From the IMG/VR virus record IMGVR_UViG_2671180360_000014: DNA of 13,050 bases. One strand, written 5' to 3'. Origin of the DNA: a virus (taxonomy: Duplodnaviria; Heunggongvirae; Uroviricota; Caudoviricetes). Below, piece by piece: positions 1-13,050 of the stretch (the stretch's first letter is position 1; each line of letters begins with the position of its first letter). The notes beneath the pieces were generated by a model. The model saw only the letters and a program-made list of their open reading frames with translations. It made no database searches and was not told the DNA's origin. A program made the translations under genes and the position numbers.

Positions 1-37
1 ATGCCACTTGCCCGTTATCTTTGCATTTTCATAAACG
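1..37. repeat. Left arm of 37-bp inverted repeat; candidate crossover site for the adjacent serine invertase
   Basis: Positions 1-37 (ATGCCACTTGCCCGTTATCTTTGCATTTTCATAAACG) are the exact reverse complement of 5727-5763. The repeat may continue beyond the window edge. Internal two-fold symmetry is weak (outer TTAT...ATAA only), so the exact core cannot be placed. Confidence 0.6.
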
Positions 38-540
38 AAAAAAAAAAACAACCCTCAGCATTACCTGTTGGGGTGCCTGTTCCATGGCCTTCAGCCACAC
101 CGCCAACAGGCTGGCTGAAATGCAACGGTGCGGCATTTTCTGCTGAAGAATACCCGGAACTGGCAAAGGCTTATCCAACAAATAAATTACCTGATTTACG
201 CGGTGAGTTTATTCGTGGATGGGATGATAGTCGTGGTATCGACAACGGGCGTGCGCTGCTTTCATCTCAAGGCCATTCACTCAGAGACCACTCACATAAC
301 CAGCAGATCTGGACAGGTTCAAATACAACATCGTCAACTATTGGTCAGGCCGGGAGTTATGCTCCGCTAGCAACTGGAGGGGATGGGGGGATTGCCTATA
401 CTGACCGGGAGCCTCAAAGCCTACCTTCAGCAGTAAGAGCTGTCAGCACTCGTGGGGTTGCTTCTGACAATGCAGCGAATATTGGCACTGAAACCCGCCC
501 GCGCAACATTGCATTTAACTACATCGTGAGGGCTGCATAA
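1..540 (+). CDS. Alternative tail-fibre C-terminal (variable) segment, tip A, with phage tail-collar-type motif; 5' end lies in the crossover repeat
   Basis: 179-aa ORF containing GWLKCNGAAFSAEEYPELAKAYPTNKLPDLRGEFIRGWDDSRGIDNGRALLSSQGHSLRDHSHN, the pattern of phage tail-collar domains at fibre C-termini. The first 12 codons are encoded by the inverted repeat, so the ATG at position 1 may not be the true start; the protein may be a fusion to an upstream constant part. Confidence 0.7.
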   Translation: MPLARYLCIFINEKKKQPSALPVGVPVPWPSATPPTGWLKCNGAAFSAEEYPELAKAYPTNKLPDLRGEFIRGWDDSRGIDNGRALLSSQGHSLRDHSHNQQIWTGSNTTSSTIGQAGSYAPLATGGDGGIAYTDREPQSLPSAVRAVSTRGVASDNAANIGTETRPRNIAFNYIVRAA

Positions 541-1142
541 TGACACAGGCAAAATTAAACAGTGAATTTATTGCCACAGTAGCGGGTGATATTACCGTCT
601 ATAACTATGACAACACGACACGGGAATACATTTCATCATCAACAGAATATCTTGCCGTTGGCGTCGGTATCCCGGCATGTTCTTGTTTAGATGCACCAGT
701 TACACATAAAGCTGGTTATGCAATCTGCCGTTCTGCAGATTTTAACTCATGGGAATATGTACCAGACCATCGCGGTGAAATCATCTATAGCACCGAAACA
801 GGAGAATCGAAAGAAATCACAGCTCCGGGTGATTACCCTGAAAATACAACCACTATCGCCCCGTTAACGCCATTCGATAAATGGGATGGTGAGAAATGGG
901 TGACGGATACCGAGGCACAGCATAGCGCCGCACTAGACGCGGCAGAAGCAAAGCGCCAGTCGCTGATTGATGCTGCAATGGCTTCCATCAGTCTGATTCA
1001 GATGAAATTACGGGCCGGGCGGAAGCTGACGCAGGCAGAAACCACCCGACTTAACGCTGTGCTGGATTACATTGACGCGGTGGAGGCAACAGATACCAGC
1101 ACCGCGCCTGATGTCATCTGGCCTGAACTGCCGGAGGCGTAG
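540..1142 (+). CDS. Tail fibre assembly chaperone (Tfa family) paired with fibre tip A
   Basis: 200-aa ORF. Start overlaps the upstream stop (TAATG) with a GAGG ribosome-binding site about 8 nt upstream. The C-terminus DKWDGEKWV...LNAVLDYIDAVEATDTSTAPDVIWPELPEA is a typical Tfa C-terminal domain. It sits directly downstream of a fibre tip, as in Mu U and e14 tfaE. Confidence 0.8.
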   Translation: MTQAKLNSEFIATVAGDITVYNYDNTTREYISSSTEYLAVGVGIPACSCLDAPVTHKAGYAICRSADFNSWEYVPDHRGEIIYSTETGESKEITAPGDYPENTTTIAPLTPFDKWDGEKWVTDTEAQHSAALDAAEAKRQSLIDAAMASISLIQMKLRAGRKLTQAETTRLNAVLDYIDAVEATDTSTAPDVIWPELPEA

Positions 1143-1915
1143 GCCATTCAATATCTGGCGCACCGGAAGTATCGACCAGTTCCAGTGCGTCCAGATAATC
1201 CAGCCACAAATTATATTGCACCAGTTCCTCACCTTTCAGGCGACCAATCGCCGCTTTACCAGGCCATTGCTTACTGTTTATGTATTCGTTGACCTGATTA
1301 ATCAATTGCTGCTTTTTCAGTTCGGCTGCGGCAATTTGTTCCTCATGAGTTGGCGGTGGAATATCAATCCATGCAGGCATTCCGTCGATGACACCTCTGT
1401 ATTTTCCTTCTGGTGCTTCCTTCATAAATTCGGCAGCAACAGTGTCGTCAATTTCGATTCCATCATCGGGCCATTCGCCGGATTCCTGATAAGCGATTTT
1501 AAGCTCCACAGGGAAAAACGCATTTTTATCGGCACTGAAAATATATTTCTGCATTTCTACCGTCCTATCGAAATATAACTGAATCTGTATTGCTGTGAGA
1601 TATCACTGGTTGCCACACGCCACGCTGAATTACTGATATGTTCAAAATTTACAGACAAAACCTGCGGGGCAGGAATCGACGGGTCTGACTGAACGGCATC
1701 AGACATAACACTGACTGAAACCATCGGCTGATTAGGGAATGGTATAGGGAAGTGTCCACTGATAAAGCGGGTCGTGTTTCCTGCAAAAGTGCCAAACTGA
1801 ACAATATATCCACCTGGTAGCCTGAACCATCCCGAACCAGAAGCGAATGCTCCCATATCCGGTATCTGATTATCTCCTGTGCCCACATCCCTTTTCGCCG
1901 CTTCTCCCAAACCAA
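660..1915. repeat. Copy 1 of a 1,256-bp perfect direct repeat (3' part of tfa-A, all of tfa-B, fibre tip B)
   Basis: ORF-track translations in several frames are identical between 660-1915 and 4471-5726 (constant offset 3811), implying near-100% nucleotide identity. Identity ends at 1915/5726 on one side and 660/4471 on the other. Confidence 0.85.
1114..1554 (-). CDS. Tail fibre assembly chaperone (Tfa family) paired with fibre H / tip B
   Basis: 146-aa ORF immediately downstream of H on the - strand (H stop 1557, tfa start 1554). C-terminus NLWLDYLDALELVDTSGAPDIEWPTPP is Tfa-like. Its 3' end overlaps the convergent tfa-A by 29 bp. Confidence 0.8.
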   Translation of the reverse strand: MQKYIFSADKNAFFPVELKIAYQESGEWPDDGIEIDDTVAAEFMKEAPEGKYRGVIDGMPAWIDIPPPTHEEQIAAAELKKQQLINQVNEYINSKQWPGKAAIGRLKGEELVQYNLWLDYLDALELVDTSGAPDIEWPTPPAVQAR

Positions 1916-2741
1916 GGTATGCGAGAAGACCGGCAACATCCTTTCCACTCAAATGAGTCAGCGTATTGTCCAGCGGTTGTTTACCTGCCAGCGCATTGTT
2001 AATGGTGGTGCTGAATTTCGGGTCATTGTTAATGGCCGCGGCAATTTCTTTCAGTGTGTCCAGCGTGTCAGGCGCACCGTTAATCAGAGCGGTAATAGCG
2101 GCCTGTACAAACGCAGTGGTCGCAATCCGCGTGGTGTTATTTCCTGCGGCAGGCGTCGGTGCTTTTGGTTCTCCGGTAAATGTCGGATTATGTTTCTGTG
2201 CATACTGGGTATGAGGGTCCTGTGCGGCAATGTGTTTGCTCATCTGGTCATCCACATACAGCCTTAATTCCAGGACTTCATCATCCACATATTTACGGGT
2301 CGCCAGTACCACCGACGGGTCGATTTTCAGCGTGATAGCTTCGGTATTCGTGACAACCAGAATCATGCGGATAGTCTGGGTACGACCACTGCCTTCCTGC
2401 AACTGCGGTTTGTACGTTTCCGGGCAGTTCGCCACCGCAATGAGTACGCCTTCATCATCATAAAGCCCAATCTCACGGATCCAGAATCCGCCCTCGTTCT
2501 CAGGGATGATTTGCTCCGCAATAATCTGACTCTGGTTGTTCGGGTCAACACTCAGAAGATTCAGCGGCGCGATGCGTTTCTGGTTAATCAGTTTTATCTG
2601 TGCCGGGTCTGGTGTCGGCAAGACACCATTCGCATCACCAACGGCCATTTGCGTCAGATTCAGCTTACTGCCGAGCATCGTCGCGTTAGCCAGCCGTGCT
2701 GCGCCCTGATTAGTCAGAATGGCGTAGTATTTCACTGTCAT
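1557..2741 (-). CDS. H: Tail fibre protein (P2 gpH-like N-terminus, tip B C-terminus)
   Basis: 394-aa ORF. The N-terminus MTVKYYAILTNQGAARLA...MAVGD...GGFWIREIGLYDDEGVLIAVAN...YKPQLQEGSGRTQT matches the conserved P2 H-family N-terminal domain. The start overlaps the stop of I (ATGA). Confidence 0.85.
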   Translation of the reverse strand: MTVKYYAILTNQGAARLANATMLGSKLNLTQMAVGDANGVLPTPDPAQIKLINQKRIAPLNLLSVDPNNQSQIIAEQIIPENEGGFWIREIGLYDDEGVLIAVANCPETYKPQLQEGSGRTQTIRMILVVTNTEAITLKIDPSVVLATRKYVDDEVLELRLYVDDQMSKHIAAQDPHTQYAQKHNPTFTGEPKAPTPAAGNNTTRIATTAFVQAAITALINGAPDTLDTLKEIAAAINNDPKFSTTINNALAGKQPLDNTLTHLSGKDVAGLLAYLGLGEAAKRDVGTGDNQIPDMGAFASGSGWFRLPGGYIVQFGTFAGNTTRFISGHFPIPFPNQPMVSVSVMSDAVQSDPSIPAPQVLSVNFEHISNSAWRVATSDISQQYRFSYISIGR

Positions 2742-3349
2742 GCGTTTACTCTCAGGTTATCAATTAAATGAATGGCCGAGGCCGGGAAATAATCCCCTCC
2801 GACAATAATGGCCTCCGGGGTGTAGGGATAAACCGTCAGGGCGTCGCCGTGATAGCATCCCGCACCGACAAAAATGTTGCCGGTTGTACTTAAACTGATA
2901 GCCAGTCCCGTCAGATGGCGGCTTGCAGGTTTTGCATCAGCAACGAGACGCTCCAGCTCCTGATACATTTCCTCGGTAATACCCTGCTCAAGCACGCCAA
3001 CAACGATGCGGAACGTCCCCGGCTCCTCGTTGAGCTGCCACCACTCCCTCACCTCAATCAGATAGCCGAGCGGCTCCACCACACGGCGAATCGCACCAAT
3101 AGTGCCCTTATGGCAGTGAATGAAATACGCATCGCGGATAACAGCGCGTTTTGTCGCTTCCGGCCACTTATCATCCCAGCGGTCAACCGAAAATGACCAC
3201 GCCAGCCACGGCAGCAGATTTGCCGGACAGGTATCCGGGTTCCACAGCTCACGAATACTGACCGGCGTTTTTTCAATTTCCGCACAGGCTCTTGCGGCGG
3301 CGACTTCAAGCGGTGATGAGCCGGTCGGCAGCAGGCGCGAATCACTCAT
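2738..3349 (-). CDS. I: Baseplate assembly protein gpI
   Basis: 203-aa ORF between J and H with coupled overlaps on both sides, matching the P2 J-I-H arrangement. N-terminus MSDSRLLPTGSSPLEVAAARACAEIEK is as I recall for the gpI family. Confidence 0.8.
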   Translation of the reverse strand: MSDSRLLPTGSSPLEVAAARACAEIEKTPVSIRELWNPDTCPANLLPWLAWSFSVDRWDDKWPEATKRAVIRDAYFIHCHKGTIGAIRRVVEPLGYLIEVREWWQLNEEPGTFRIVVGVLEQGITEEMYQELERLVADAKPASRHLTGLAISLSTTGNIFVGAGCYHGDALTVYPYTPEAIIVGGDYFPASAIHLIDNLRVNA

Positions 3350-4250
3350 CCGAGCCTCCGGTCACGACGCTGTATTCGGTGCAGAAAGACGCCTGCGTAC
3401 TGTTGAGCACAATGTCGGCCAGTGGTGCGGCCAGCTCGACACGCTGCACGCCTTCCACATGCAAAGCGGCATAAATGGCAGACAGACGGATGTCGCGCCC
3501 CAGCCGGTGCTGTGCCGTGATGTACGCTTCCAGTTTTTTCACGGCAGCAGCGCGGATGGGTTCGCTTTCAGGACCAGGGTAAAGGTAAAGCGTGGCGTTT
3601 ATCTGGTATTCAACGATGGCGGCAGACTGCACGGTCACGCGGTCGGCCACCGGCCTGACGTCCTCACCATTAAGGGCGTTGCGCACCACCGCCAGCAGGT
3701 CTTCGGATGCGATACCGTTATTTTCGCGAGACAGCACAGAGATAGTGACACAGGCCGGAGACGGACTGGTGACAGAGATATCCGCGACACGCCCGTCGGC
3801 ACTGCGACCATGATACTGATAGGCTCCCACTGACCCGGCGACGCTTAAACCTTCAAACGCCTGCTGAATACGCAGACGATAATCGGTGTCAGATTCCATC
3901 ACTGCCGGTGTCGGCGGGATAGTCGAATCATCTGCCGGGGTGATAATCAGGCGCGTGGTGTTGTAATTGGCACCAATCACATCAAGGTCATTACCGGCGG
4001 CACAGGCCAGCATTACCGCCCGTGCGGCCTCATTCACACGCTGACGCCAGATAAGCTCACGATAAGCATTTTCCTCCAGCAGTTTGACGAGAGGCTCAGA
4101 TTCCAGCATCAGGGTACGGGCGACCGCCTCCTGCTGGTCTTCCGGGTAAAGGGAAATCAGTGTCGCCTTGCGTTCGGCAAGAATGGTTTCAAAGTCCAGC
4201 TCCTCGACCACATCCGGTGCGGGTAGCTGGTTCAGGTCGATAATCGGCAT
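3342..4250 (-). CDS. J: Baseplate assembly protein gpJ
   Basis: 302-aa ORF, the same length as P2 gpJ, lying between W and I. It overlaps the I start by 8 bp. Confidence 0.85.
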   Translation of the reverse strand: MPIIDLNQLPAPDVVEELDFETILAERKATLISLYPEDQQEAVARTLMLESEPLVKLLEENAYRELIWRQRVNEAARAVMLACAAGNDLDVIGANYNTTRLIITPADDSTIPPTPAVMESDTDYRLRIQQAFEGLSVAGSVGAYQYHGRSADGRVADISVTSPSPACVTISVLSRENNGIASEDLLAVVRNALNGEDVRPVADRVTVQSAAIVEYQINATLYLYPGPESEPIRAAAVKKLEAYITAQHRLGRDIRLSAIYAALHVEGVQRVELAAPLADIVLNSTQASFCTEYSVVTGGSDE

Positions 4251-4254
4251 GGTT

Positions 4255-4497
4255 TCAACTCACAGGGATGGTTAACGAAAGTGGCTGGCCGGTGTCGTTG
4301 TGCTGACCGGTTAACGTGACCGTTATTCGCCCGTCAAAACTGCGCGCCGTGGTGACGGATGACAGGGTGACGCGGGGTTCCCATTTCAGCACCGCCATGT
4401 AACAGGCGACCTTAATCTGCAACTCAAGCGCCGGGGTCTGCGGCTGGTCAATCATTGACGCCAGCAAAAAGGCGTCGGTATCCCGGCATGTTCTTGT
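4255..4497 (-). pseudogene. W: Baseplate protein gpW fragment, N-terminally truncated at the repeat joint
   Basis: The reading frame is open from 4497 to the stop at 4255 but has no ATG; the ORF track starts it at TTG 4467. It is 70-80 codons against about 115 for gpW, and the upstream part runs into repeat copy 2 at 4471. It sits directly upstream of J as in P2. Confidence 0.55.
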
Positions 4498-4953
4498 TTA
4501 GATGCACCAGTTACACATAAAGCTGGTTATGCAATCTGCCGTTCTGCAGATTTTAACTCATGGGAATATGTACCAGACCATCGCGGTGAAATCATCTATA
4601 GCACCGAAACAGGAGAATCGAAAGAAATCACAGCTCCGGGTGATTACCCTGAAAATACAACCACTATCGCCCCGTTAACGCCATTCGATAAATGGGATGG
4701 TGAGAAATGGGTGACGGATACCGAGGCACAGCATAGCGCCGCACTAGACGCGGCAGAAGCAAAGCGCCAGTCGCTGATTGATGCTGCAATGGCTTCCATC
4801 AGTCTGATTCAGATGAAATTACGGGCCGGGCGGAAGCTGACGCAGGCAGAAACCACCCGACTTAACGCTGTGCTGGATTACATTGACGCGGTGGAGGCAA
4901 CAGATACCAGCACCGCGCCTGATGTCATCTGGCCTGAACTGCCGGAGGCGTAG
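4471..4953 (+). pseudogene. 5'-truncated copy of the tail fibre assembly gene tfa-A (3' 483 bp only)
   Basis: Corresponds to 660-1142 of the intact gene at 540-1142. The first 120 bp, the ribosome-binding site and the start codon are missing. The track ORF 4711-4953 is identical to the last 80 aa. Confidence 0.6.
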
Positions 4954-5365
4954 GCCATTCAATATCTGGCGCACCGGAAGTATCGACCAGTTCCAGTGCG
5001 TCCAGATAATCCAGCCACAAATTATATTGCACCAGTTCCTCACCTTTCAGGCGACCAATCGCCGCTTTACCAGGCCATTGCTTACTGTTTATGTATTCGT
5101 TGACCTGATTAATCAATTGCTGCTTTTTCAGTTCGGCTGCGGCAATTTGTTCCTCATGAGTTGGCGGTGGAATATCAATCCATGCAGGCATTCCGTCGAT
5201 GACACCTCTGTATTTTCCTTCTGGTGCTTCCTTCATAAATTCGGCAGCAACAGTGTCGTCAATTTCGATTCCATCATCGGGCCATTCGCCGGATTCCTGA
5301 TAAGCGATTTTAAGCTCCACAGGGAAAAACGCATTTTTATCGGCACTGAAAATATATTTCTGCAT
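4925..5365 (-). CDS. Tail fibre assembly chaperone, second identical copy of tfa-B
   Basis: 146-aa translation identical to that of 1114-1554. Confidence 0.75.
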   Translation of the reverse strand: MQKYIFSADKNAFFPVELKIAYQESGEWPDDGIEIDDTVAAEFMKEAPEGKYRGVIDGMPAWIDIPPPTHEEQIAAAELKKQQLINQVNEYINSKQWPGKAAIGRLKGEELVQYNLWLDYLDALELVDTSGAPDIEWPTPPAVQAR

Positions 5366-5367
5366 TT

Positions 5368-5766
5368 CTACCGTCCTATCGAAATATAACTGAATCTGTA
5401 TTGCTGTGAGATATCACTGGTTGCCACACGCCACGCTGAATTACTGATATGTTCAAAATTTACAGACAAAACCTGCGGGGCAGGAATCGACGGGTCTGAC
5501 TGAACGGCATCAGACATAACACTGACTGAAACCATCGGCTGATTAGGGAATGGTATAGGGAAGTGTCCACTGATAAAGCGGGTCGTGTTTCCTGCAAAAG
5601 TGCCAAACTGAACAATATATCCACCTGGTAGCCTGAACCATCCCGAACCAGAAGCGAATGCTCCCATATCCGGTATCTGATTATCTCCTGTGCCCACATC
5701 CCTTTTCGCCGCTTCTCCCAAACCAACGTTTATGAAAATGCAAAGATAACGGGCAAGTGGCATCAT
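5368..5766 (-). CDS. Tail-fibre C-terminal (variable) segment tip B, cassette copy; 5' end lies in the crossover repeat and it lacks the H constant part in cis
   Basis: 132-aa ORF whose last 119 aa (VGLGEAAKRDVGTGDN...ISIGR) are identical to the C-terminus of H (1557-2741). Its first 13 codons (MMPLARYLCIFIN) are encoded by the inverted repeat. Confidence 0.65.
   Translation of the reverse strand: MMPLARYLCIFINVGLGEAAKRDVGTGDNQIPDMGAFASGSGWFRLPGGYIVQFGTFAGNTTRFISGHFPIPFPNQPMVSVSVMSDAVQSDPSIPAPQVLSVNFEHISNSAWRVATSDISQQYRFSYISIGR
5727..5763. repeat. Right arm of 37-bp inverted repeat; candidate crossover site about 30 bp upstream of the invertase gene
   Basis: Exact reverse complement of 1-37. 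Its position next to the invertase start resembles gixR-gin in Mu and the e14 pin arrangement. Confidence 0.6.
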
Positions 5767-5793
5767 CTCCGGTTTTTATTCAGGGGGATGCTC

Positions 5794-6387
5794 ATGTTTA
5801 TTGGCTATGTACGCGTATCAACAAATGACCAGAACACGGAATTGCAGCGTAACGCGCTGGAATGCGCGGGATGTGAGCGGATTTTTGAGGACAAAATCAG
5901 CGGCACGAAGTCCGACAGGCCGGGGCTGAAAAAACTGCTCAGGACATTATCGGAGGGGGATACACTGGTAGTCTGGAAGCTGGACCGGCTGGGGCGTAGT
6001 ATGCGGCATCTGGTCATTCTGGTTGAGGAACTGCGCGAACGTGGCATTAATTTTCGCAGCCTGACGGATGCTATTGATACCAGCACGCCGATGGGGCGTT
6101 TTTTCTTTCATGTGATGGGTGCCCTGGCTGAAATGGAACGAGAACTCATTGTCGAGCGGACTCGGGCCGGGCTGGAAGCGGCCAGAGCCAAAGGTCGTAT
6201 TGGTGGCAGACGTCCTAAACTCACCACGAGTGAGTGGGAGCAGGCCGGGCGTTTGCTGGCTGCAGGGGAGTCACGTCAACGCGTGGCACTGATTTTTGAT
6301 ATTGGTCTGTCCACGCTCTATAAAAAATTTCCCTCATCAGCGACAAAGAATAAATTGTGTCATCCCTTAGCCAACCGGGACAAATAG
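5794..6387 (+). CDS. Serine DNA invertase, Gin/Pin/Cin/Hin family (resolvase/invertase fold with C-terminal HTH)
   Basis: N-terminus MFIGYVRVSTNDQ carries the catalytic serine motif. TLVVWKLDRLGRS, MGRFFFHVMGALAEMERELIVERT and the C-terminal GLSTLYKKFP helix-turn-helix are hallmark motifs of this family. I prefer the ATG at 5794 (GGGGGA about 5 nt upstream) over the track start at 5788. Confidence 0.9.
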   Translation: MFIGYVRVSTNDQNTELQRNALECAGCERIFEDKISGTKSDRPGLKKLLRTLSEGDTLVVWKLDRLGRSMRHLVILVEELRERGINFRSLTDAIDTSTPMGRFFFHVMGALAEMERELIVERTRAGLEAARAKGRIGGRRPKLTTSEWEQAGRLLAAGESRQRVALIFDIGLSTLYKKFPSSATKNKLCHPLANRDK

Positions 6388-6446
6388 CCTGACATCTCCG
6401 GCACAACTGAAAATATCACTCACCCATTAACCACGGAGTTAAACGG

Positions 6447-7637
6447 ATGAGTGACTATCATCACGGCGTGCAGGTGCTGGAGATTAACGACGGCACCCGC
6501 GTCATTTCCACCGTATCCACTGCCATTGTCGGCATGGTCTGCACGGCCAGCGATGCGGATGCGGAAACCTTCCCCCTCAATAAACCGGTGCTGATTACCA
6601 ATGTGCAGAGTGCAATTGCAAAGGCTGGTAAAAAAGGCACGCTGGCGGCGTCGTTGCAGGCCATCGCTGACCAGTCAAAACCGGTCACCGTTGTCGTGCG
6701 TGTGGAAGACGGCACCGGCGAAGACGAGGAAACGAAACTTGCGCAGACCGTTTCCAATATCATCGGCACCACCGACGAAAACGGCCAGTACACCGGACTG
6801 AAAGCCCTGCTGGCGGCGGAGTCGGTAACCGGTGTTAAACCGCGTATTCTCGGCGTGCCGGGACTGGACACCAAAGAGGTGGCTGTTGCACTGGCATCAG
6901 TCTGTCAGAAGCTGCGCGCTTTCGGGTATATCAGCGCATGGGGCTGTAAAACCATTTCCGAGGTGAAAGCCTACCGTCAGAATTTCAGCCAGCGTGAGCT
7001 GATGGTCATCTGGCCGGATTTCCTCGCATGGGATACGGTCACCAGTACTACCGCCACCGCGTATGCCACCGCCCGTGCGCTGGGTCTGCGTGCCAGAATT
7101 GACCAGGAGCAGGGCTGGCATAAAACGCTGTCCAATGTCGGGGTGAACGGTGTTACCGGCATCAGCGCCTCTGTATTCTGGGATTTGCAGGAGTCCGGCA
7201 CCGATGCTGACTTGCTTAACGAGTCAGGCGTCACAACGCTGATTCGCCGCGACGGTTTCCGCTTCTGGGGTAACCGTACCTGCTCTGATGACCCGCTGTT
7301 CCTCTTTGAAAACTACACCCGCACCGCGCAGGTGCTGGCCGACACGATGGCTGAGGCGCACATGTGGGCGGTGGACAAGCCCATCACCGCAACGCTGATT
7401 CGCGACATCGTTGACGGCATCAATGCCAAATTCCGTGAGCTGAAAACAAACGGCTATATCGTGGATGCGACCTGCTGGTTCAGCGAAGAATCCAACGATG
7501 CGGAAACCCTCAAGGCCGGAAAACTGTATATCGACTACGACTATACACCGGTGCCTCCTCTTGAAAACCTGACCCTGCGCCAGCGTATTACCGATAAATA
7601 CCTGGCAAATCTGGTCACTTCGGTTAACAGCAATTAA
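6447..7637 (+). CDS. FI: Contractile tail sheath protein gpFI
   Basis: 396 aa, the same length as P2 FI, with N-terminus MSDYHHGVQVLEINDGTRVISTV. A GGAG ribosome-binding site lies 8 nt upstream. It is the first gene of an FI-FII-E-T-U-D array. Confidence 0.92.
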   Translation: MSDYHHGVQVLEINDGTRVISTVSTAIVGMVCTASDADAETFPLNKPVLITNVQSAIAKAGKKGTLAASLQAIADQSKPVTVVVRVEDGTGEDEETKLAQTVSNIIGTTDENGQYTGLKALLAAESVTGVKPRILGVPGLDTKEVAVALASVCQKLRAFGYISAWGCKTISEVKAYRQNFSQRELMVIWPDFLAWDTVTSTTATAYATARALGLRARIDQEQGWHKTLSNVGVNGVTGISASVFWDLQESGTDADLLNESGVTTLIRRDGFRFWGNRTCSDDPLFLFENYTRTAQVLADTMAEAHMWAVDKPITATLIRDIVDGINAKFRELKTNGYIVDATCWFSEESNDAETLKAGKLYIDYDYTPVPPLENLTLRQRITDKYLANLVTSVNSN

Positions 7638-7649
7638 GGAGCCTGACCG

Positions 7650-8168
7650 ATGGCAATGCCGCGCAAACTCAAGTTAATGAACGTCTTTCTGAACGGCTAC
7701 AGCTATCAGGGCGTTGCAAAGTCCGTCACGCTGCCAAAACTGACCCGTAAGCTCGAAAACTATCGCGGTGCGGGGATGAACGGCAGCGCACCGGTAGACC
7801 TCGGCCTTGATGACGATGCGCTGTCAATGGAGTGGTCGCTCGGGGGCTTCCCGGATTCGGTTATCTGGGAGCTCTACGCCGCAACCGGTGTGGATGCCGT
7901 ACCGATTCGTTTTGCAGGCTCTTACCAGCGCGACGATACCGGCGAAACGGTGGCCGTCGAGGTGGTCATGCGTGGACGTCAGAAAGAAATCGACACCGGC
8001 GAGGGTAAACAGGGAGAAGACACCGAGTCGAAAATCTCCGTGGTCTGCACCTATTTCCGGTTGACGATGGACGGTAAGGAGCTGGTCGAAATCGACACCA
8101 TCAACATGATTGAGAAGGTGAACGGCGTCGACCGGCTGGAGCAACACCGCCGCAATATCGGCCTGTGA
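7650..8168 (+). CDS. FII: Tail tube protein gpFII
   Basis: 172 aa, the same length as P2 FII, with N-terminus MAMPRKLKLMNVFLNGYSYQGVAKSV. An AAGGAG ribosome-binding site lies 8 nt upstream. Confidence 0.92.
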   Translation: MAMPRKLKLMNVFLNGYSYQGVAKSVTLPKLTRKLENYRGAGMNGSAPVDLGLDDDALSMEWSLGGFPDSVIWELYAATGVDAVPIRFAGSYQRDDTGETVAVEVVMRGRQKEIDTGEGKQGEDTESKISVVCTYFRLTMDGKELVEIDTINMIEKVNGVDRLEQHRRNIGL

Positions 8169-8224
8169 TTTTCATACGGTCAGCCAGGCTGACCGGTTAA
8201 CCCTGATTCAGAAGTGAGAAAACC

Positions 8225-8500
8225 ATGAACAAAGAAAATGTCATTACCCTGGAAAATCCGGTCAAACGTGGTGAGCAGGTTATCGAACAGGTCACGCTGA
8301 TGAAACCCAGTGCCGGGACGCTGCGCGGTGTCAGTCTGGCTGCGGTCGCAAACTCCGAAGTCGATGCACTGATTAAAGTGCTGCCGCGCATGACGGCACC
8401 GATGCTGACCGAGCAGGAAGTCGCCGCGCTGGAACTGCCTGACCTTGTGGCGCTGGCCGGTAAGGTGGTCGGTTTTTTGTCGCCGAACTCGGTGCAGTAA
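8225..8500 (+). CDS. E: Tail assembly chaperone gpE (zero-frame product)
   Basis: 91 aa, the same length as P2 E. It sits between the tube gene and the tape measure gene and ends just after the slippery heptamer. Confidence 0.85.
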   Translation: MNKENVITLENPVKRGEQVIEQVTLMKPSAGTLRGVSLAAVANSEVDALIKVLPRMTAPMLTEQEVAALELPDLVALAGKVVGFLSPNSVQ

Positions 8501-8652
8501 CGTTTCCGAAAAATCTCTCGGTCGATGACCTGATGGCGGATGTGGCAGTGATATTTCACTGGCCGCCATCAGAACTGTATCCCATGAGCCTGACCGAACT
8601 CATCACATGGCGCGAAAGGGCGCTCCGGCGAAGCGGAAACACGAATGAGTAA
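8225..8652 (+). CDS. E': Tail assembly chaperone gpE+E', made by programmed -1 ribosomal frameshift at 8473-8479
   Basis: After slippage at T TTT TTG, the -1 frame reads VAELGAVTFPKNLSVDDLMADVAVIFHWPPSELYPMSLTELITWRERALRRSGNTNE and stops at 8650-8652, overlapping the T start at 8645. Total length is 85+57 = 142 aa, as I recall for P2 E+E'. Confidence 0.75.
8473..8479 (+). promoter_or_regulatory. -1 programmed frameshift slippery heptamer T_TTT_TTG
   Basis: X XXY YYZ heptamer in the E zero frame (GGT TTT TTG) near the 3' end of E, the conserved position for tail-chaperone frameshifts between the tube and tape measure genes. Confidence 0.75.
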
Positions 8653-11092
8653 CAATGTAAAATTACAGGTATTGCTCAGGGCTGTTGACCAGGCATCCCG
8701 CCCGTTTAAATCCATCCGCACAGCGAGCAAGTCGCTGTCGGGGGATATCCGGGAAACACAAAAATCACTGCGCGAGCTGAACGGTCAGGCATCCCGTATT
8801 GAGGGATTTCGCAAGACCAGTGCACAGCTCGCCGTGACTGGTCATGCACTTGAAAAGGCTCGACAGGAGGCCGAAGCCCTTGCCACACAGTTTAAAAACA
8901 CCGAACGTCCGACCCGTGCTCAGGCGAAAGTGCTGGAATCCGCAAAGCGTGCGGCGGAGGACTTACAGGCGAAATATAACCGCCTGACGGATTCCGTTAA
9001 ACGCCAGCAGCGGGAACTGGCCGCTGTGGGAATTAATACCCGCAATCTTGCACATGATGAGCAGGGGCTGATAAACCGTATCAGTGAAACCACCGCACAA
9101 CTTAACCGTCAGCGCGACGCACTGGCGCGTGTCAGTGCACAACAGGCAAAACTTAACGCAGTCAAACAGCGTTATCAGGCCGGAAAGGAACTGGCCGGAA
9201 ATATGGCCTCAGTGGGCGCTGCCGGTGTGGGGATTGCTGCTGCGGGAACGATGGCCGGAGTTAAGTTGCTGATGCCCGGTTATGAGTTTGCGCAGAAAAA
9301 CTCAGAATTGCAGGCCGTGCTAGGTGTGGCAAAAGACTCCGCCGAAATGACCGCACTACGCAAACAGGCGCGCCAGCTCGGCGACAATACCGCCGCCTCG
9401 GCGGATGATGCGGCCGGTGCACAGATAATCATCGCGAAAGCGGGTGGGGATGTTGATGCCATTCAGGCGGCAACGCCGGTCACGCTGAATATGGCGCTGG
9501 CGAACCGCCGCACGATGGAAGAAAACGCCGCCCTGCTGATGGGGATGAAATCCGCCTTTCAGCTTTCAAACGATAAGGTCGCTCATATCGGGGATGTTCT
9601 CTCCATGACGATGAACAAAACCGCCGCCGATTTTGACGGCATGAGCGATGCGCTGACCTATGCCGCACCTGTGGCAAAAAATGCCGGTGTCAGCATTGAA
9701 GAAACCGCCGCAATGGTCGGGGCGCTGCATGATGCAAAAATCACAGGCTCAATGGCGGGGACGGGAAGCCGTGCCGTGTTAAGCCGCCTGCAGGCACCGA
9801 CGGGAAAAGCATGGGATGCACTCAAAGAGCTTGGAGTGAAAACCTCAGACAGCAAGGGAAACACCCGGCCAATATTTACCATTCTGAAAGAAATGCAGGC
9901 CAGTTTTGAGAAAAACCGGCTCGGTACTGCCCAGCAGGCTGAATACATGAAAACTATTTTCGGGGAGGAGGCCAGCTCAGCCGCCGCCGTGCTGATGACT
10001 GCCGCCTCAACCGGAAAGCTGGACAAACTGACCGCTGCGTTTAAAGCCTCAGACGGGAAGACTGCCGAGCTGGTAAATATCATGCAGGACAACCTCGGCG
10101 GTGACTTTAAGGAGTTTCAGTCCGCTTATGAGGCGGTGGGGACAGACCTGTTTGACCAGCAGGAAGGCGCACTGCGTAAGCTCACGCAGACGGCCACAAA
10201 GTATGTGTTAAAACTCGACGGCTGGATCCAGAAAAACAAATCACTGGCGTCAACCATCGGCCTCATTGTCGGTGGCGCGCTGGCGCTTATTGGCATCATC
10301 GGTGCCATTGGTCTTGTAGCCTGGCCGGTTATCACTGGCATCAATGCCATCATCGCGGCAGCAGGCGCAATGGGGGCAGTCTTCACGACGGTTGGCAGTG
10401 CTGTTATGACCGCCATCGGGGCGATTAGCTGGCCGGTTGTGGCCGTGGTGGCCGCCATTGTCGCCGGGGCGTTGCTTATCCGTAAATACTGGGAGCCTGT
10501 CAGCGCATTCTTTGGCGGTGTGGTGGAAGGGCTGAAAGCGGCATTTGCGCCGGTGGGGGAGCTGTTCTCGCCACTTAAGCCGGTGTTCGACTGGCTGGGC
10601 GAAAAGTTACAGGCCGCGTGGCAGTGGTTTAAAAACCTGATTGCCCCGGTCAAAGCCACTCAGGACACCCTGAACAGTTGCCGTGACACGGGGGTCATGT
10701 TCGGGCAGGCACTGGCTGACGCGCTGATGCTGCCGCTTAATGCGTTCAACAAACTGCGCAGCGGTATTGACTGGGTACTGGAAAAACTCGGTGTTATCAA
10801 CAAAGAGTCAGACACACTTGACCAGACCGCCGCCAGAACTCAAGCCGCCACGTATGGCAGCGGTGGTTATATTCCGGCGACCAGCTCTTATGCAGGCTAT
10901 CAGGCTTATCAGCCGGTCACGGCACCGGCTGGCCGCTCTTATGTGGACCAGAGTAAAAACGAATATCACATCAGCCTGACGGGGGGGACTGCGCCGGGGA
11001 CACAGCTCGACCGCCAGTTACAGGATGCGCTCGAAAAATACGAGCGGGATAAACGTGCGCGCGCCCGTGCCAGCATGATGCATGACGGTTAA
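8645..11092 (+). CDS. T: Tail tape measure protein gpT
   Basis: 815 aa, the same length as P2 T. It has a coiled-coil-rich N-terminal half and a hydrophobic glycine/alanine-rich stretch (LIVGGALALIGIIGAIGLVAWPVITGINAIIAAAGAMGAV). Its position after E/E' fits. Confidence 0.92.
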   Translation: MSNNVKLQVLLRAVDQASRPFKSIRTASKSLSGDIRETQKSLRELNGQASRIEGFRKTSAQLAVTGHALEKARQEAEALATQFKNTERPTRAQAKVLESAKRAAEDLQAKYNRLTDSVKRQQRELAAVGINTRNLAHDEQGLINRISETTAQLNRQRDALARVSAQQAKLNAVKQRYQAGKELAGNMASVGAAGVGIAAAGTMAGVKLLMPGYEFAQKNSELQAVLGVAKDSAEMTALRKQARQLGDNTAASADDAAGAQIIIAKAGGDVDAIQAATPVTLNMALANRRTMEENAALLMGMKSAFQLSNDKVAHIGDVLSMTMNKTAADFDGMSDALTYAAPVAKNAGVSIEETAAMVGALHDAKITGSMAGTGSRAVLSRLQAPTGKAWDALKELGVKTSDSKGNTRPIFTILKEMQASFEKNRLGTAQQAEYMKTIFGEEASSAAAVLMTAASTGKLDKLTAAFKASDGKTAELVNIMQDNLGGDFKEFQSAYEAVGTDLFDQQEGALRKLTQTATKYVLKLDGWIQKNKSLASTIGLIVGGALALIGIIGAIGLVAWPVITGINAIIAAAGAMGAVFTTVGSAVMTAIGAISWPVVAVVAAIVAGALLIRKYWEPVSAFFGGVVEGLKAAFAPVGELFSPLKPVFDWLGEKLQAAWQWFKNLIAPVKATQDTLNSCRDTGVMFGQALADALMLPLNAFNKLRSGIDWVLEKLGVINKESDTLDQTAARTQAATYGSGGYIPATSSYAGYQAYQPVTAPAGRSYVDQSKNEYHISLTGGTAPGTQLDRQLQDALEKYERDKRARARASMMHDG

Positions 11093-11106
11093 GGAGGTGA
11101 CGAAAA

Positions 11107-11586
11107 ATGATGCTCGCGTTAGGTATGTTTGTTTTTATGCGCCAGACGCTGCCACACCAGACCATGCAGCGTGAATCAGATTATCGCTGGCCGTCAAATT
11201 CCCGTATCGGCAAACGGGATGCCTTTCAGTTTCTCGGTGTGGGTGAGGAAAACATCACGCTGGCCGGTGTGCTTTATCCCGAACTGACCGGCGGCAAGCT
11301 GACGATGACCACGCTCAGGCTGATGGCAGAGGAAGGCCGGGCGTGGCCGTTGCTGGATGGCACCGGCATGATTTACGGCATGTATGTCATCAGTAAGGTG
11401 AGTGAAACAGGGAGTATTTTCTTTGCAGACGGCACACCCCGAAAAATTGATTTTACGCTGTCGCTCACCCGCGTTGATGAATCACTGGCCGCGCTTTATG
11501 GCGATATCGGTAAACAGGCGGAATCGCTCATCGGTAAGGCTGGCAATATGGCGACTAAATTCACGGGTATGACGGAGGCGGGATAA
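11107..11586 (+). CDS. U: Tail protein gpU
   Basis: 159 aa, the same length as P2 U. An AAGGAGG ribosome-binding site lies 9 nt upstream. Its stop overlaps the D start (TAATG). Confidence 0.88.
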   Translation: MMLALGMFVFMRQTLPHQTMQRESDYRWPSNSRIGKRDAFQFLGVGEENITLAGVLYPELTGGKLTMTTLRLMAEEGRAWPLLDGTGMIYGMYVISKVSETGSIFFADGTPRKIDFTLSLTRVDESLAALYGDIGKQAESLIGKAGNMATKFTGMTEAG

Positions 11587-12750
11587 TGCTGGATGCGCTG
11601 ACATTTGATGCAGGCAGTACGCTGACGCCGGATTACATGCTGATGCTCGACAGCAAGGATATTACCGGCAATATCAGCGACCGTCTGATGAGCATGACCC
11701 TGACGGATAACCGGGGCTTTGAGGCTGACCAGCTTGATATTGAACTGAACGACGCCGACGGGCAGGTCGGGCTACCGATTCGTGGCGCTGTCCTGACGGT
11801 GTATATCGGCTGGAAAGGTTTTGCCCTGGTATGCAAAGGGAAATTTACCGTTGATGAGGTTGAACACCGGGGCGCGCCGGATGTGGTTACCATCCGCGCC
11901 CGGAGTGCAGATTTCCGCGGGACGCTCAATTCCCGCCGTGAAGGCTCCTGGCATGACACCACGCTCGGTGCGATTGTTGAGGCGATAGCCTCCCGTAACA
12001 GGCTGGAAGCCAGTGTCGCTCCGTCACTGGCCGGAATTAAAATCCCGCACATCGACCAGTCGCAGGAGTCTGATGCGAAATTCCTGACCCGTCTTGCAGA
12101 ACGCAACGGCGGTGAGGTGTCGGTAAAAATGGGAAAACTGTTGTTTCTCAAAGCGGGGGCAGGGGGTGACGGCCAGCGGTAAAAAAATCCCGCAGATTAC
12201 CATCACCCGCAGCGACGGCGACCGTCATCATTTTGCGATTGCTGACCGTGGAGCCTATACCGGCGTAACGGCAAAGTGGCTTCACACCAAAGACCCGAAG
12301 CCGCAAAAGCAGAAGGTAAAACTGAAACGCAAAAAGAAAGAAAAACACCTGCGCGCACTGGAGCACCCAAAAGCGAAACCGGTCAGGCAGAAGAAAGCGC
12401 CAAAAGTACCGGAAGCGCGCGAAGGTGAATATATGGCCGGTGAGGCTGACAATGTTTTTGCCCTGACCACGGTATATGCCACGAAAGCGCAGGCCATGCG
12501 CGCCGCTCAGGCGAAGTGGGATAAACTGCAACGGGGCGTTGCGGAGTTCTCCATCAGCCTGGCTACCGGTCGGGCAGATATTTACACGGAAACACCGGTT
12601 AAAGTGTCAGGCTTTAAGCGCGTCATAGACGAGCAGGACTGGACAATCACTAAGGTGACACATTTTCTGAATAATAGCGGCTTCACGACGTCCCTGGAGC
12701 TTGAGGTCAGGCTTTCTGATGTGGAGTACGAAACAGAAGATGATGAGTGA
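11586..12750 (+). pseudogene. D: Tail protein gpD, disrupted by a +1 frame change in a G-run (or a homopolymer sequencing error)
   Basis: Two overlapping ORFs (11586-12182 in frame 0, 12166-12750 in frame +1) span 1165 nt, one more than the 1164 nt needed for 387 aa plus stop. Removing one G from GGGGG at 12155-12159 joins them into a 387-aa protein (...LLFLKAG/QGVTASGKKIPQ...), the length I recall for P2 gpD. Confidence 0.7.
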
Positions 12751-12768
12751 TGTATTTATTTTATCTGT

Positions 12769-12797
12769 TTGTTTTATAAGGATAAATTAACTAAAAT
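12769..12797 (+). promoter_or_regulatory. Candidate sigma70-type promoter for ogr (-35 TTGTTT, 17-bp spacer, -10 TAAAAT)
   Basis: TTGTTT at 12769-12774 and TAAAAT at 12792-12797 with a 17-bp spacer in the AT-rich D-ogr intergenic region. GGAAGAGG follows at 12816-12823 as a ribosome-binding site 8 nt before the ATG at 12832. Confidence 0.35.
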
Positions 12798-12831
12798 GGC
12801 ACCATCAACAAAACCGGAAGAGGTGCTCGCG

Positions 12832-13050
12832 ATGTTTCATTGTCCTTTATGCCAGCATGCCGCACATGCGCGTACAAGTCGCTATATCACTGACACGACA
12901 AAAGAGCGTTATCACCAGTGTCAGAACGTGAATTGCAGCGCCACGTTCATCACTTATGAGTCGGTACAGAGATACATCGTGAAGCCGGGAGAAGTCCACG
13001 CCGTGAGGCCGCACCCGTTGCCGTCAGGGCAGCAAATTATGTGGATGTAA
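12832..13050 (+). CDS. ogr: Late-gene transcriptional activator Ogr (zinc-finger, Ogr/Delta family)
   Basis: 72-aa product MFHCPLCQHAAHARTSRYITDTTKERYHQCQNVNCSATFITYESVQRY... with the Cys-X2-Cys...Cys-X4-Cys arrangement, matching P2 Ogr as I remember it. The track ORF 12769-13050 begins at an upstream TTG that lacks a ribosome-binding site. Confidence 0.9.
   Translation: MFHCPLCQHAAHARTSRYITDTTKERYHQCQNVNCSATFITYESVQRYIVKPGEVHAVRPHPLPSGQQIMWM

Follow-up and report, generated by a model that had tools for sequence, protein, structure and literature searches.

An extra G splits the baseplate hub gene D of a P2-like Escherichia coli prophage, probably leaving the prophage tail-defective

The DNA stretch analysed here, hereafter the window, is 13,050 nt long and comes from a P2-like (Peduovirus) prophage of E. 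coli, of which it represents the tail region. The prophage adjoins pflB. Following an invertible tail-fibre segment, the window carries these genes:

5794-6387 (+): serine recombinase (PF00239 and PF02796)
6447-7637 (+): FI, sheath, wild-type length
7650-8168 (+): FII, tube, wild-type length
8225-8500 (+): E, wild-type length
8533-8652 (+): E′, wild-type length
8645-11092 (+): T, tape measure, wild-type length
11107-11586 (+): U, tube initiator (PF06995), 159 aa, intact; its stop overlaps the start of D
11586-12750 (+): D, baseplate hub (PF05954, Phage_GPD), 1165 nt, frameshifted pseudogene
12832-13050 (+): ogr, late transcription activator (PF04606), 72 aa, intact; equals 11247-11465 of locus L005

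The lengths and the order of FI, FII, E, E′, T, U, and ogr match those of intact relatives, such as E. coli BUCT2930 and phage P2. This agrees with an earlier note on the same DNA, which had been made from the sequence alone and had described the tail operon as intact apart from D. The position of D is also that of the P2 tail operon, the order being FI-FII-E-E′-T-U-D-ogr. Near the end of E, the sequence GGTTTTTTG is found intact at 8471-8479. We take it to be the slippery site of the −1 programmed frameshift of P2 that gives E/E+E′, the tail assembly chaperone.

The left part of the window needs to be read together with its assembly history. The source of the window is the draft assembly GCA_001285005.1, in which it is located at the end of the record CYDK01000007.1 (161,721 nt). 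The window differs from this record only at 4468-4470, where it has AAA and the record has NNN. Positions 1-4467 are the reverse complement of W′-J-I-H plus the invertible tail-fibre segment in the flipped state, and the unflipped segment continues to the right of the join at 4468-4470. An exact duplicate of 1,256 bp is found at 660-1915 and 4471-5726. A sister assembly, GCA_001284965.2, has the normal gene order. Since the junction is NNN in the record and the order in the sister assembly is normal, the inverted left half results from scaffolding and does not reflect a rearrangement of the prophage. The reversed W-J-I-H and the 1,256-bp duplication had been considered as signs of a scrambled prophage that would support its being a remnant, and were rejected as such on the same two grounds.

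The invertible segment itself (1-5790) is of the Gin/Cin/Hin type and provides alternative C-termini of H. It contains two tail-fibre assembly genes on opposite strands, and 37-bp inverted repeats are located at 1-37 and 5727-5763. At 38-53, both the window and the NCBI record have AAAAAAAAAAACAACC in place of the 16-nt crossover sequence TTGGTTTGGGAGAAGG, which is expected from the other copy (5764-5779, reversed) and from locus L005. The presence of AAAAAAAAAAACAACC at this invertase site is probably an artefact of gap filling or assembly. Both orientations of the segment occur in one scaffold, and the Logan contig of run ERR178186 has a break at 5713. The two states were therefore probably mixed in the culture that was sequenced, with the switch active.

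In intact relatives, D has 1164 nt and encodes 387 aa, versus 1165 nt in the window, where it is read as two overlapping ORFs with two G-runs at their overlap:

11586-12182 (+): N-terminal ORF, 198 aa, stop TAA
12166-12750 (+): C-terminal ORF, GTG start at 12166, 194 codons, +1 frame
12155-12159 (+): first G-run, five G, with the extra G and the frameshift site by alignment; four G in wild type
12162-12166 (+): second G-run, five G, of wild-type length here; other strains have alleles with one G fewer (four G) or with GGGGAA

The two ORFs share 17 nt. Their starts are offset by 580 nt (3 × 193 + 1), which places the C-terminal ORF in the +1 frame. The N-terminal ORF encodes wild-type residues 1-191 (ending in FLKAG) and seven out-of-frame residues, AGGDGQR, before it terminates at TAA, and the C-terminal ORF encodes wild-type residues 193-387. 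Direct reading of 12153-12168 gives GCGGGGGCAGGGGGTG. In phages P2, pro147, and R18C, D is a single CDS of 1164 nt encoding 387 aa; alignment of the window with these phages has exactly one gap, which falls in the first G-run, with five G in the window versus four in the phages. Across about 100 phage records and the top 60 E. coli genomes, the 1165 nt of the window are matched by 1164 nt in each. Hence, the earlier note had both ORFs right in coordinates and frames, and its observation holds that removal of one G from 12155-12159 yields a protein of 387 aa, a length that agrees with P2-type D.

The identity of the gene is supported by several comparisons. The repaired product scores 93.5 bits against PF05954 (Phage_GPD, 'phage tail baseplate hub'; cut-off 30.1), and the N- and C-terminal halves score 47.1 and 36 bits, respectively. 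PF05954 is a single model of 305 positions, of which the N-terminal ORF covers 11-146 and the C-terminal ORF 168-304. The window DNA is 97.6% identical over the whole gene to that of P2 gpD ('late control gene D protein'), which likewise lies after U and before ogr and has the same 387 residues as the repaired product. The repaired protein aligns with the hub of R2 pyocin (6u5h_C) at E = 8e-46, ungapped across the break site. Homologues at 45-80% identity keep the segment G-K/N-L-L-F-L/I-K/R-A/Q-G-x-G-x-T-A-S-G-K as one chain. The gp27-like hubs (R2 pyocin 6u5h chain C, Mu gp44 1wru, T4 gp27 1k28, and T6SS VgrG) are all single polypeptides, whereas the chain encoded by the window is broken midway through the fold. 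At 12155-12159, where intact P2-like phages and prophages carry four G, the extra G breaks the frame of the window after residue 191, and no uninterrupted frame spans the whole hub fold. With its frame split at this position, D of the window is a pseudogene of the Phage_GPD family and most likely not a functional member. The earlier note had also considered that D proteins might naturally end near residue 198 and be followed by a separate downstream gene. We rejected such a natural two-gene D, as the gene is in one frame in the phages and in 119 viral contigs, and 6u5h_C and the homologues are single chains; the split is abnormal.

The structural context of the break was viewed in an AlphaFold model of only moderate confidence (mean pLDDT 66.7, pTM 0.34), which was made on the complete homologue P0141 and not on the window protein. 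The break maps to the start of a low-confidence loop after a β-strand in this model. A Foldseek search with the model retrieved the hub proteins of pyocin R2, Mu, P1, T4, T6SS VgrG, and eCIS, with E values of 1e-13 to 1e-6 and TM scores of about 0.3. In the virion, the hub is present in three copies and nucleates the baseplate and the tail; the spike gpV is located below it, and six gpU link it to the tube (bioRxiv 10.64898/2026.09.14.750843).

Among the homologues, a search with the N-terminal fragment gave mostly truncated or frameshifted cluster representatives, none of them of 387 aa, and is of no use for a length distribution. Many D homologues (P0113, P0120, P0126, P0130, P0145, P0147, and others) have out-of-frame tails from a Lys-rich region rich in A-runs, and these tails begin at about window residues 236-275. 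Public assemblies often contain D genes that are broken, or mis-called at homopolymers.

The distribution of the allele with five G in the first run, hereafter the 5-G allele, was surveyed with a 46-nt query able to seed only on this allele, and a 45-nt wild-type query served as the control. The 46-nt query had no match in 5,426 complete E. coli genomes, and the control matched 1,614 places in 1,421 of them. Exact-pattern scans found no 5-G allele in the genomes of 185,579 species, in IMG/VR, or in JGI metagenome contigs, and it is absent from the approximately 100 phage records. A length-tolerant pattern retrieved 120 viral contigs; the motif is present in 119, every one of which is in frame with four G in the first run. 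Since the genome, viral, and metagenome contig scans returned nothing, the 5-G allele appears from these comparisons to be private to the small E. coli lineage of its source, represented by the two draft assemblies.

Other lesions are found at the same motif. The exact product of the C-terminal ORF occurs on 15 contigs, more than the N-terminal product does. One further allele, which we call the −1 allele, has lost a G from the second run (GGGGCAGGGG); its D has 1163 nt and is read as 192 + 194 aa with a GTGA stop/start overlap. It is carried by GCA_050525625.1, three Logan runs, and the complete genome RM8082. At least five D haplotypes, differing from one another by 11-24 SNPs, carry the −1 allele, and its chromosomal sites differ as well; hence, it has arisen, or has been mis-called, more than once. 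Its frequency in complete genomes is one in about 1,700 places. A G-to-AA change (GGGGAA) occurs in one low-coverage ENA assembly, and one metagenome scaffold has an N-gap exactly at the motif. The loci with such other lesions are L007, L010, L013, L014, L135 (RM8082), L009, and L012. In RM8082 (NZ_CP043825.1, F1745_RS22485), PGAP annotates D as 'frameshifted', and the gene, the 13-nt G-rich motif, and the start of the C-terminal ORF are the same as in the window. The two cases differ in that RM8082 has lost a G from the second run, in a D of another haplotype located at fieF-pfkA, whereas the window has an insertion in the first run. The GGGGCAGGGGG motif is a weak, minor site of recurrent indels, be they mutational or technical, and not a high-frequency switch.

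These observations bear on whether the fifth G is real. The earlier note had held a homopolymer error to be equally plausible. In such a case, D of the strain would be intact, with four G, and the fifth would be an artefact of the homopolymer or of its G-rich context. The site is indeed a G-rich double homopolymer; the indels and the N-gap at exactly this motif in other assemblies could partly reflect a sequence-specific technical problem, and a homopolymer deletion from long-read sequencing could account for the −1 allele of the complete genome RM8082. The source scaffold also has artefacts elsewhere, namely the NNN join and the A11 filler at the recombination site. Against this stands the recovery of the same five G from separate data. 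The 5-G allele is present in two separately deposited NCBI drafts with different contig structures, GCA_001285005.1 and GCA_001284965.2, as well as in an independent Logan assembly of run ERR178186. The sister contig CYED01000008.1 of GCA_001284965.2 (158,241 nt) is 100% identical to the window over 4471-13050, and the Logan contig is 100% identical over 5713-13050 with no break at the G-run site. Exact look-up of the 198-aa product found only a few contigs, from the two NCBI assemblies and the Logan assembly; the accessions of the truncated protein are CTV47005.1 and CTX26725.1. Our view of the sequencing platform and of the independence of the two isolates comes from accession numbers and contig sizes only, and a literature search found no paper describing ERR178186, CYED01, or GCA_001284965. 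The window data are otherwise free of indels. When 8,580 bases are aligned with E. coli BUCT2930, the nearest intact relative, the extra G accounts for the single gap, and the remaining 4.4 kb of the window have none. Of the 129 homopolymer runs of at least four bases in 4471-13050, among them one G7 and several G5, only the run at 12155-12159 has an indel; the other 128 have none. The G7 run in T (10981-10987) has the length found in relatives and serves as an internal control against a general G-homopolymer error. This pattern of gaps is not that of a data set prone to homopolymer errors. Besides, the same context never has five G at the 1,614 complete-genome places, so that a systematic error would have to be specific to one project. 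With the allele recovered in two assemblies and by Logan, and no other indel among the 129 runs in 8.6 kb, an error is much less likely than the earlier note supposed. We regard the extra G as very likely to be a genuine mutation and an artefact as unlikely; that the strain actually carries four G and an intact D has a small chance.

If the insertion is genuine, part of the function might still be retained, either by occasional +1 slippage of the ribosome or by production and assembly of both halves. Perfect +1 re-pairing could occur at two GGG-G sites (12156-12159 and 12162-12165). At the former, tRNA-Gly would re-pair from GGG 12156-12158 to 12157-12159, and the product would be identical to the wild type; after a slip at 12162-12164, it would be a Q-to-A variant. 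Since the +1 frame is open from position 12127 onward, a shift anywhere between 12127 and 12182 would be productive. Three copies of the hub suffice per virion, and the homologue model suggests that the break falls in a low-confidence loop after a β-strand. The halves could also be made separately, given that the putative start GTG 12166 of the C-terminal ORF has GGGGG 6 nt upstream as a Shine-Dalgarno-like element and that re-initiation there could be coupled to termination at 12180-12182, the stop being 14 nt downstream of the GTG. In the −1 allele of other strains, residues 1-192 and 193-387 are divided at a clean GTGA stop/start overlap, and no residue is lost. However, the A-site codon at the shift is GCA, which is neither slow nor a stop, no Shine-Dalgarno-like element lies upstream of the shift codon, and the structure of the downstream RNA is not unusual (z = −0.62). 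A natural two-gene D is not seen among phages, and the split alleles are extremely rare (0 and 1 of about 1,600-1,700 places), as expected if they are deleterious rather than tolerated. We consider such retention of function in the window improbable. The wider proposal, that split alleles at GGGGCAGGGGG are in general not dead, is very improbable. The halves would then be translationally coupled and co-assembled, the +1 allele by way of the G-rich Shine-Dalgarno-like run 6 nt before the GTG and the −1 allele by way of the GTGA overlap, or rare +1 slippage on GGG-G would supply the three hubs. If this were true, lysogens would release few but viable phages, and the motif would act as a reversible dimmer on tail production. 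An evolved feature, i.e., programmed recoding or a phase-variable switch in which the G-tract was selected to regulate tail production, is scarcely credible. The recurrence of +1 G, −1 G, and G-to-AA alleles at the motif on D haplotypes 11-24 SNPs apart speaks for it. Nevertheless, the shifted arrangement is found in none of the approximately 100 phage records, 119 IMG/VR contigs, and 1,614 complete-genome places, and the 5-G allele in none of the genomes of 185,579 species and none of the metagenome contigs. A contingency locus has a long and often polymorphic tract; tracts of four to five G are shorter than is typical, and length polymorphism here is below 0.1%, with no +1 and one −1 allele among about 1,600-1,700 complete-genome places. 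Runs of five G are probably also too short for transcriptional slippage. As to programmed +1 frameshifting, the window has a P-site codon capable of re-pairing, but neither a conserved arrangement nor stimulators, the A-site codon being GCA, the upstream sequence CTCAAAGCG, and the downstream fold at z = −0.62. The window resembles prfB (RF2) of E. coli in that the full-length product would be recovered by a +1 shift with perfect re-pairing in the P site. It lacks the other features of prfB, namely the conserved in-frame UGA in the A site, the Shine-Dalgarno-like stimulator located 3 nt upstream, and the conservation of the arrangement across bacteria. Because the allele is private to its lineage and the shifted arrangement is conserved in none of the collections searched, we reject evolved recoding, and the recoding site offered by the earlier note as one reading of the split finds no support as an evolved feature.

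The reading we favour is that a genuine one-base insertion frameshifts D of this P2-like prophage, which would probably leave it with no hub, baseplate, or tail; taken as a whole, we hold this to be likely. Replication slippage in the G-tract most likely converted four G to five within the motif GCGGGGCAGGGGG. The other tail genes are kept intact, which points to a recent insertion. The product of frame 0 would consist of residues 1-191 and the seven wrong residues, and would lack the second half of the single Phage_GPD fold. Without the hub, the baseplate and the tail would not be assembled. Infectious particles would then be expected on induction only after reversion of the G-run, with D supplied by another P2-like prophage, or where rare +1 slippage on GGG-G yields a little full-length protein. 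The tail-defective remnant suggested by the earlier note is accordingly the best-supported reading as far as the intact remaining tail genes and the single-chain homologues are concerned, and its loss-of-function part is what we infer rather than observe.

Most likely, what the window shows is a P2 hub gene D that a frameshift has made an ordinary prophage pseudogene, and not a recoding signal. D of this prophage should be annotated as a frameshifted pseudogene of the P2 hub gene, and the finding has little significance beyond that. The GGGGCAGGGGG motif in D is a useful checkpoint for the intactness of P2-like prophages or for assembly polishing. When inducible prophages or helpers of P4-like satellites are inferred from this genome, the prophage should count as probably tail-defective.
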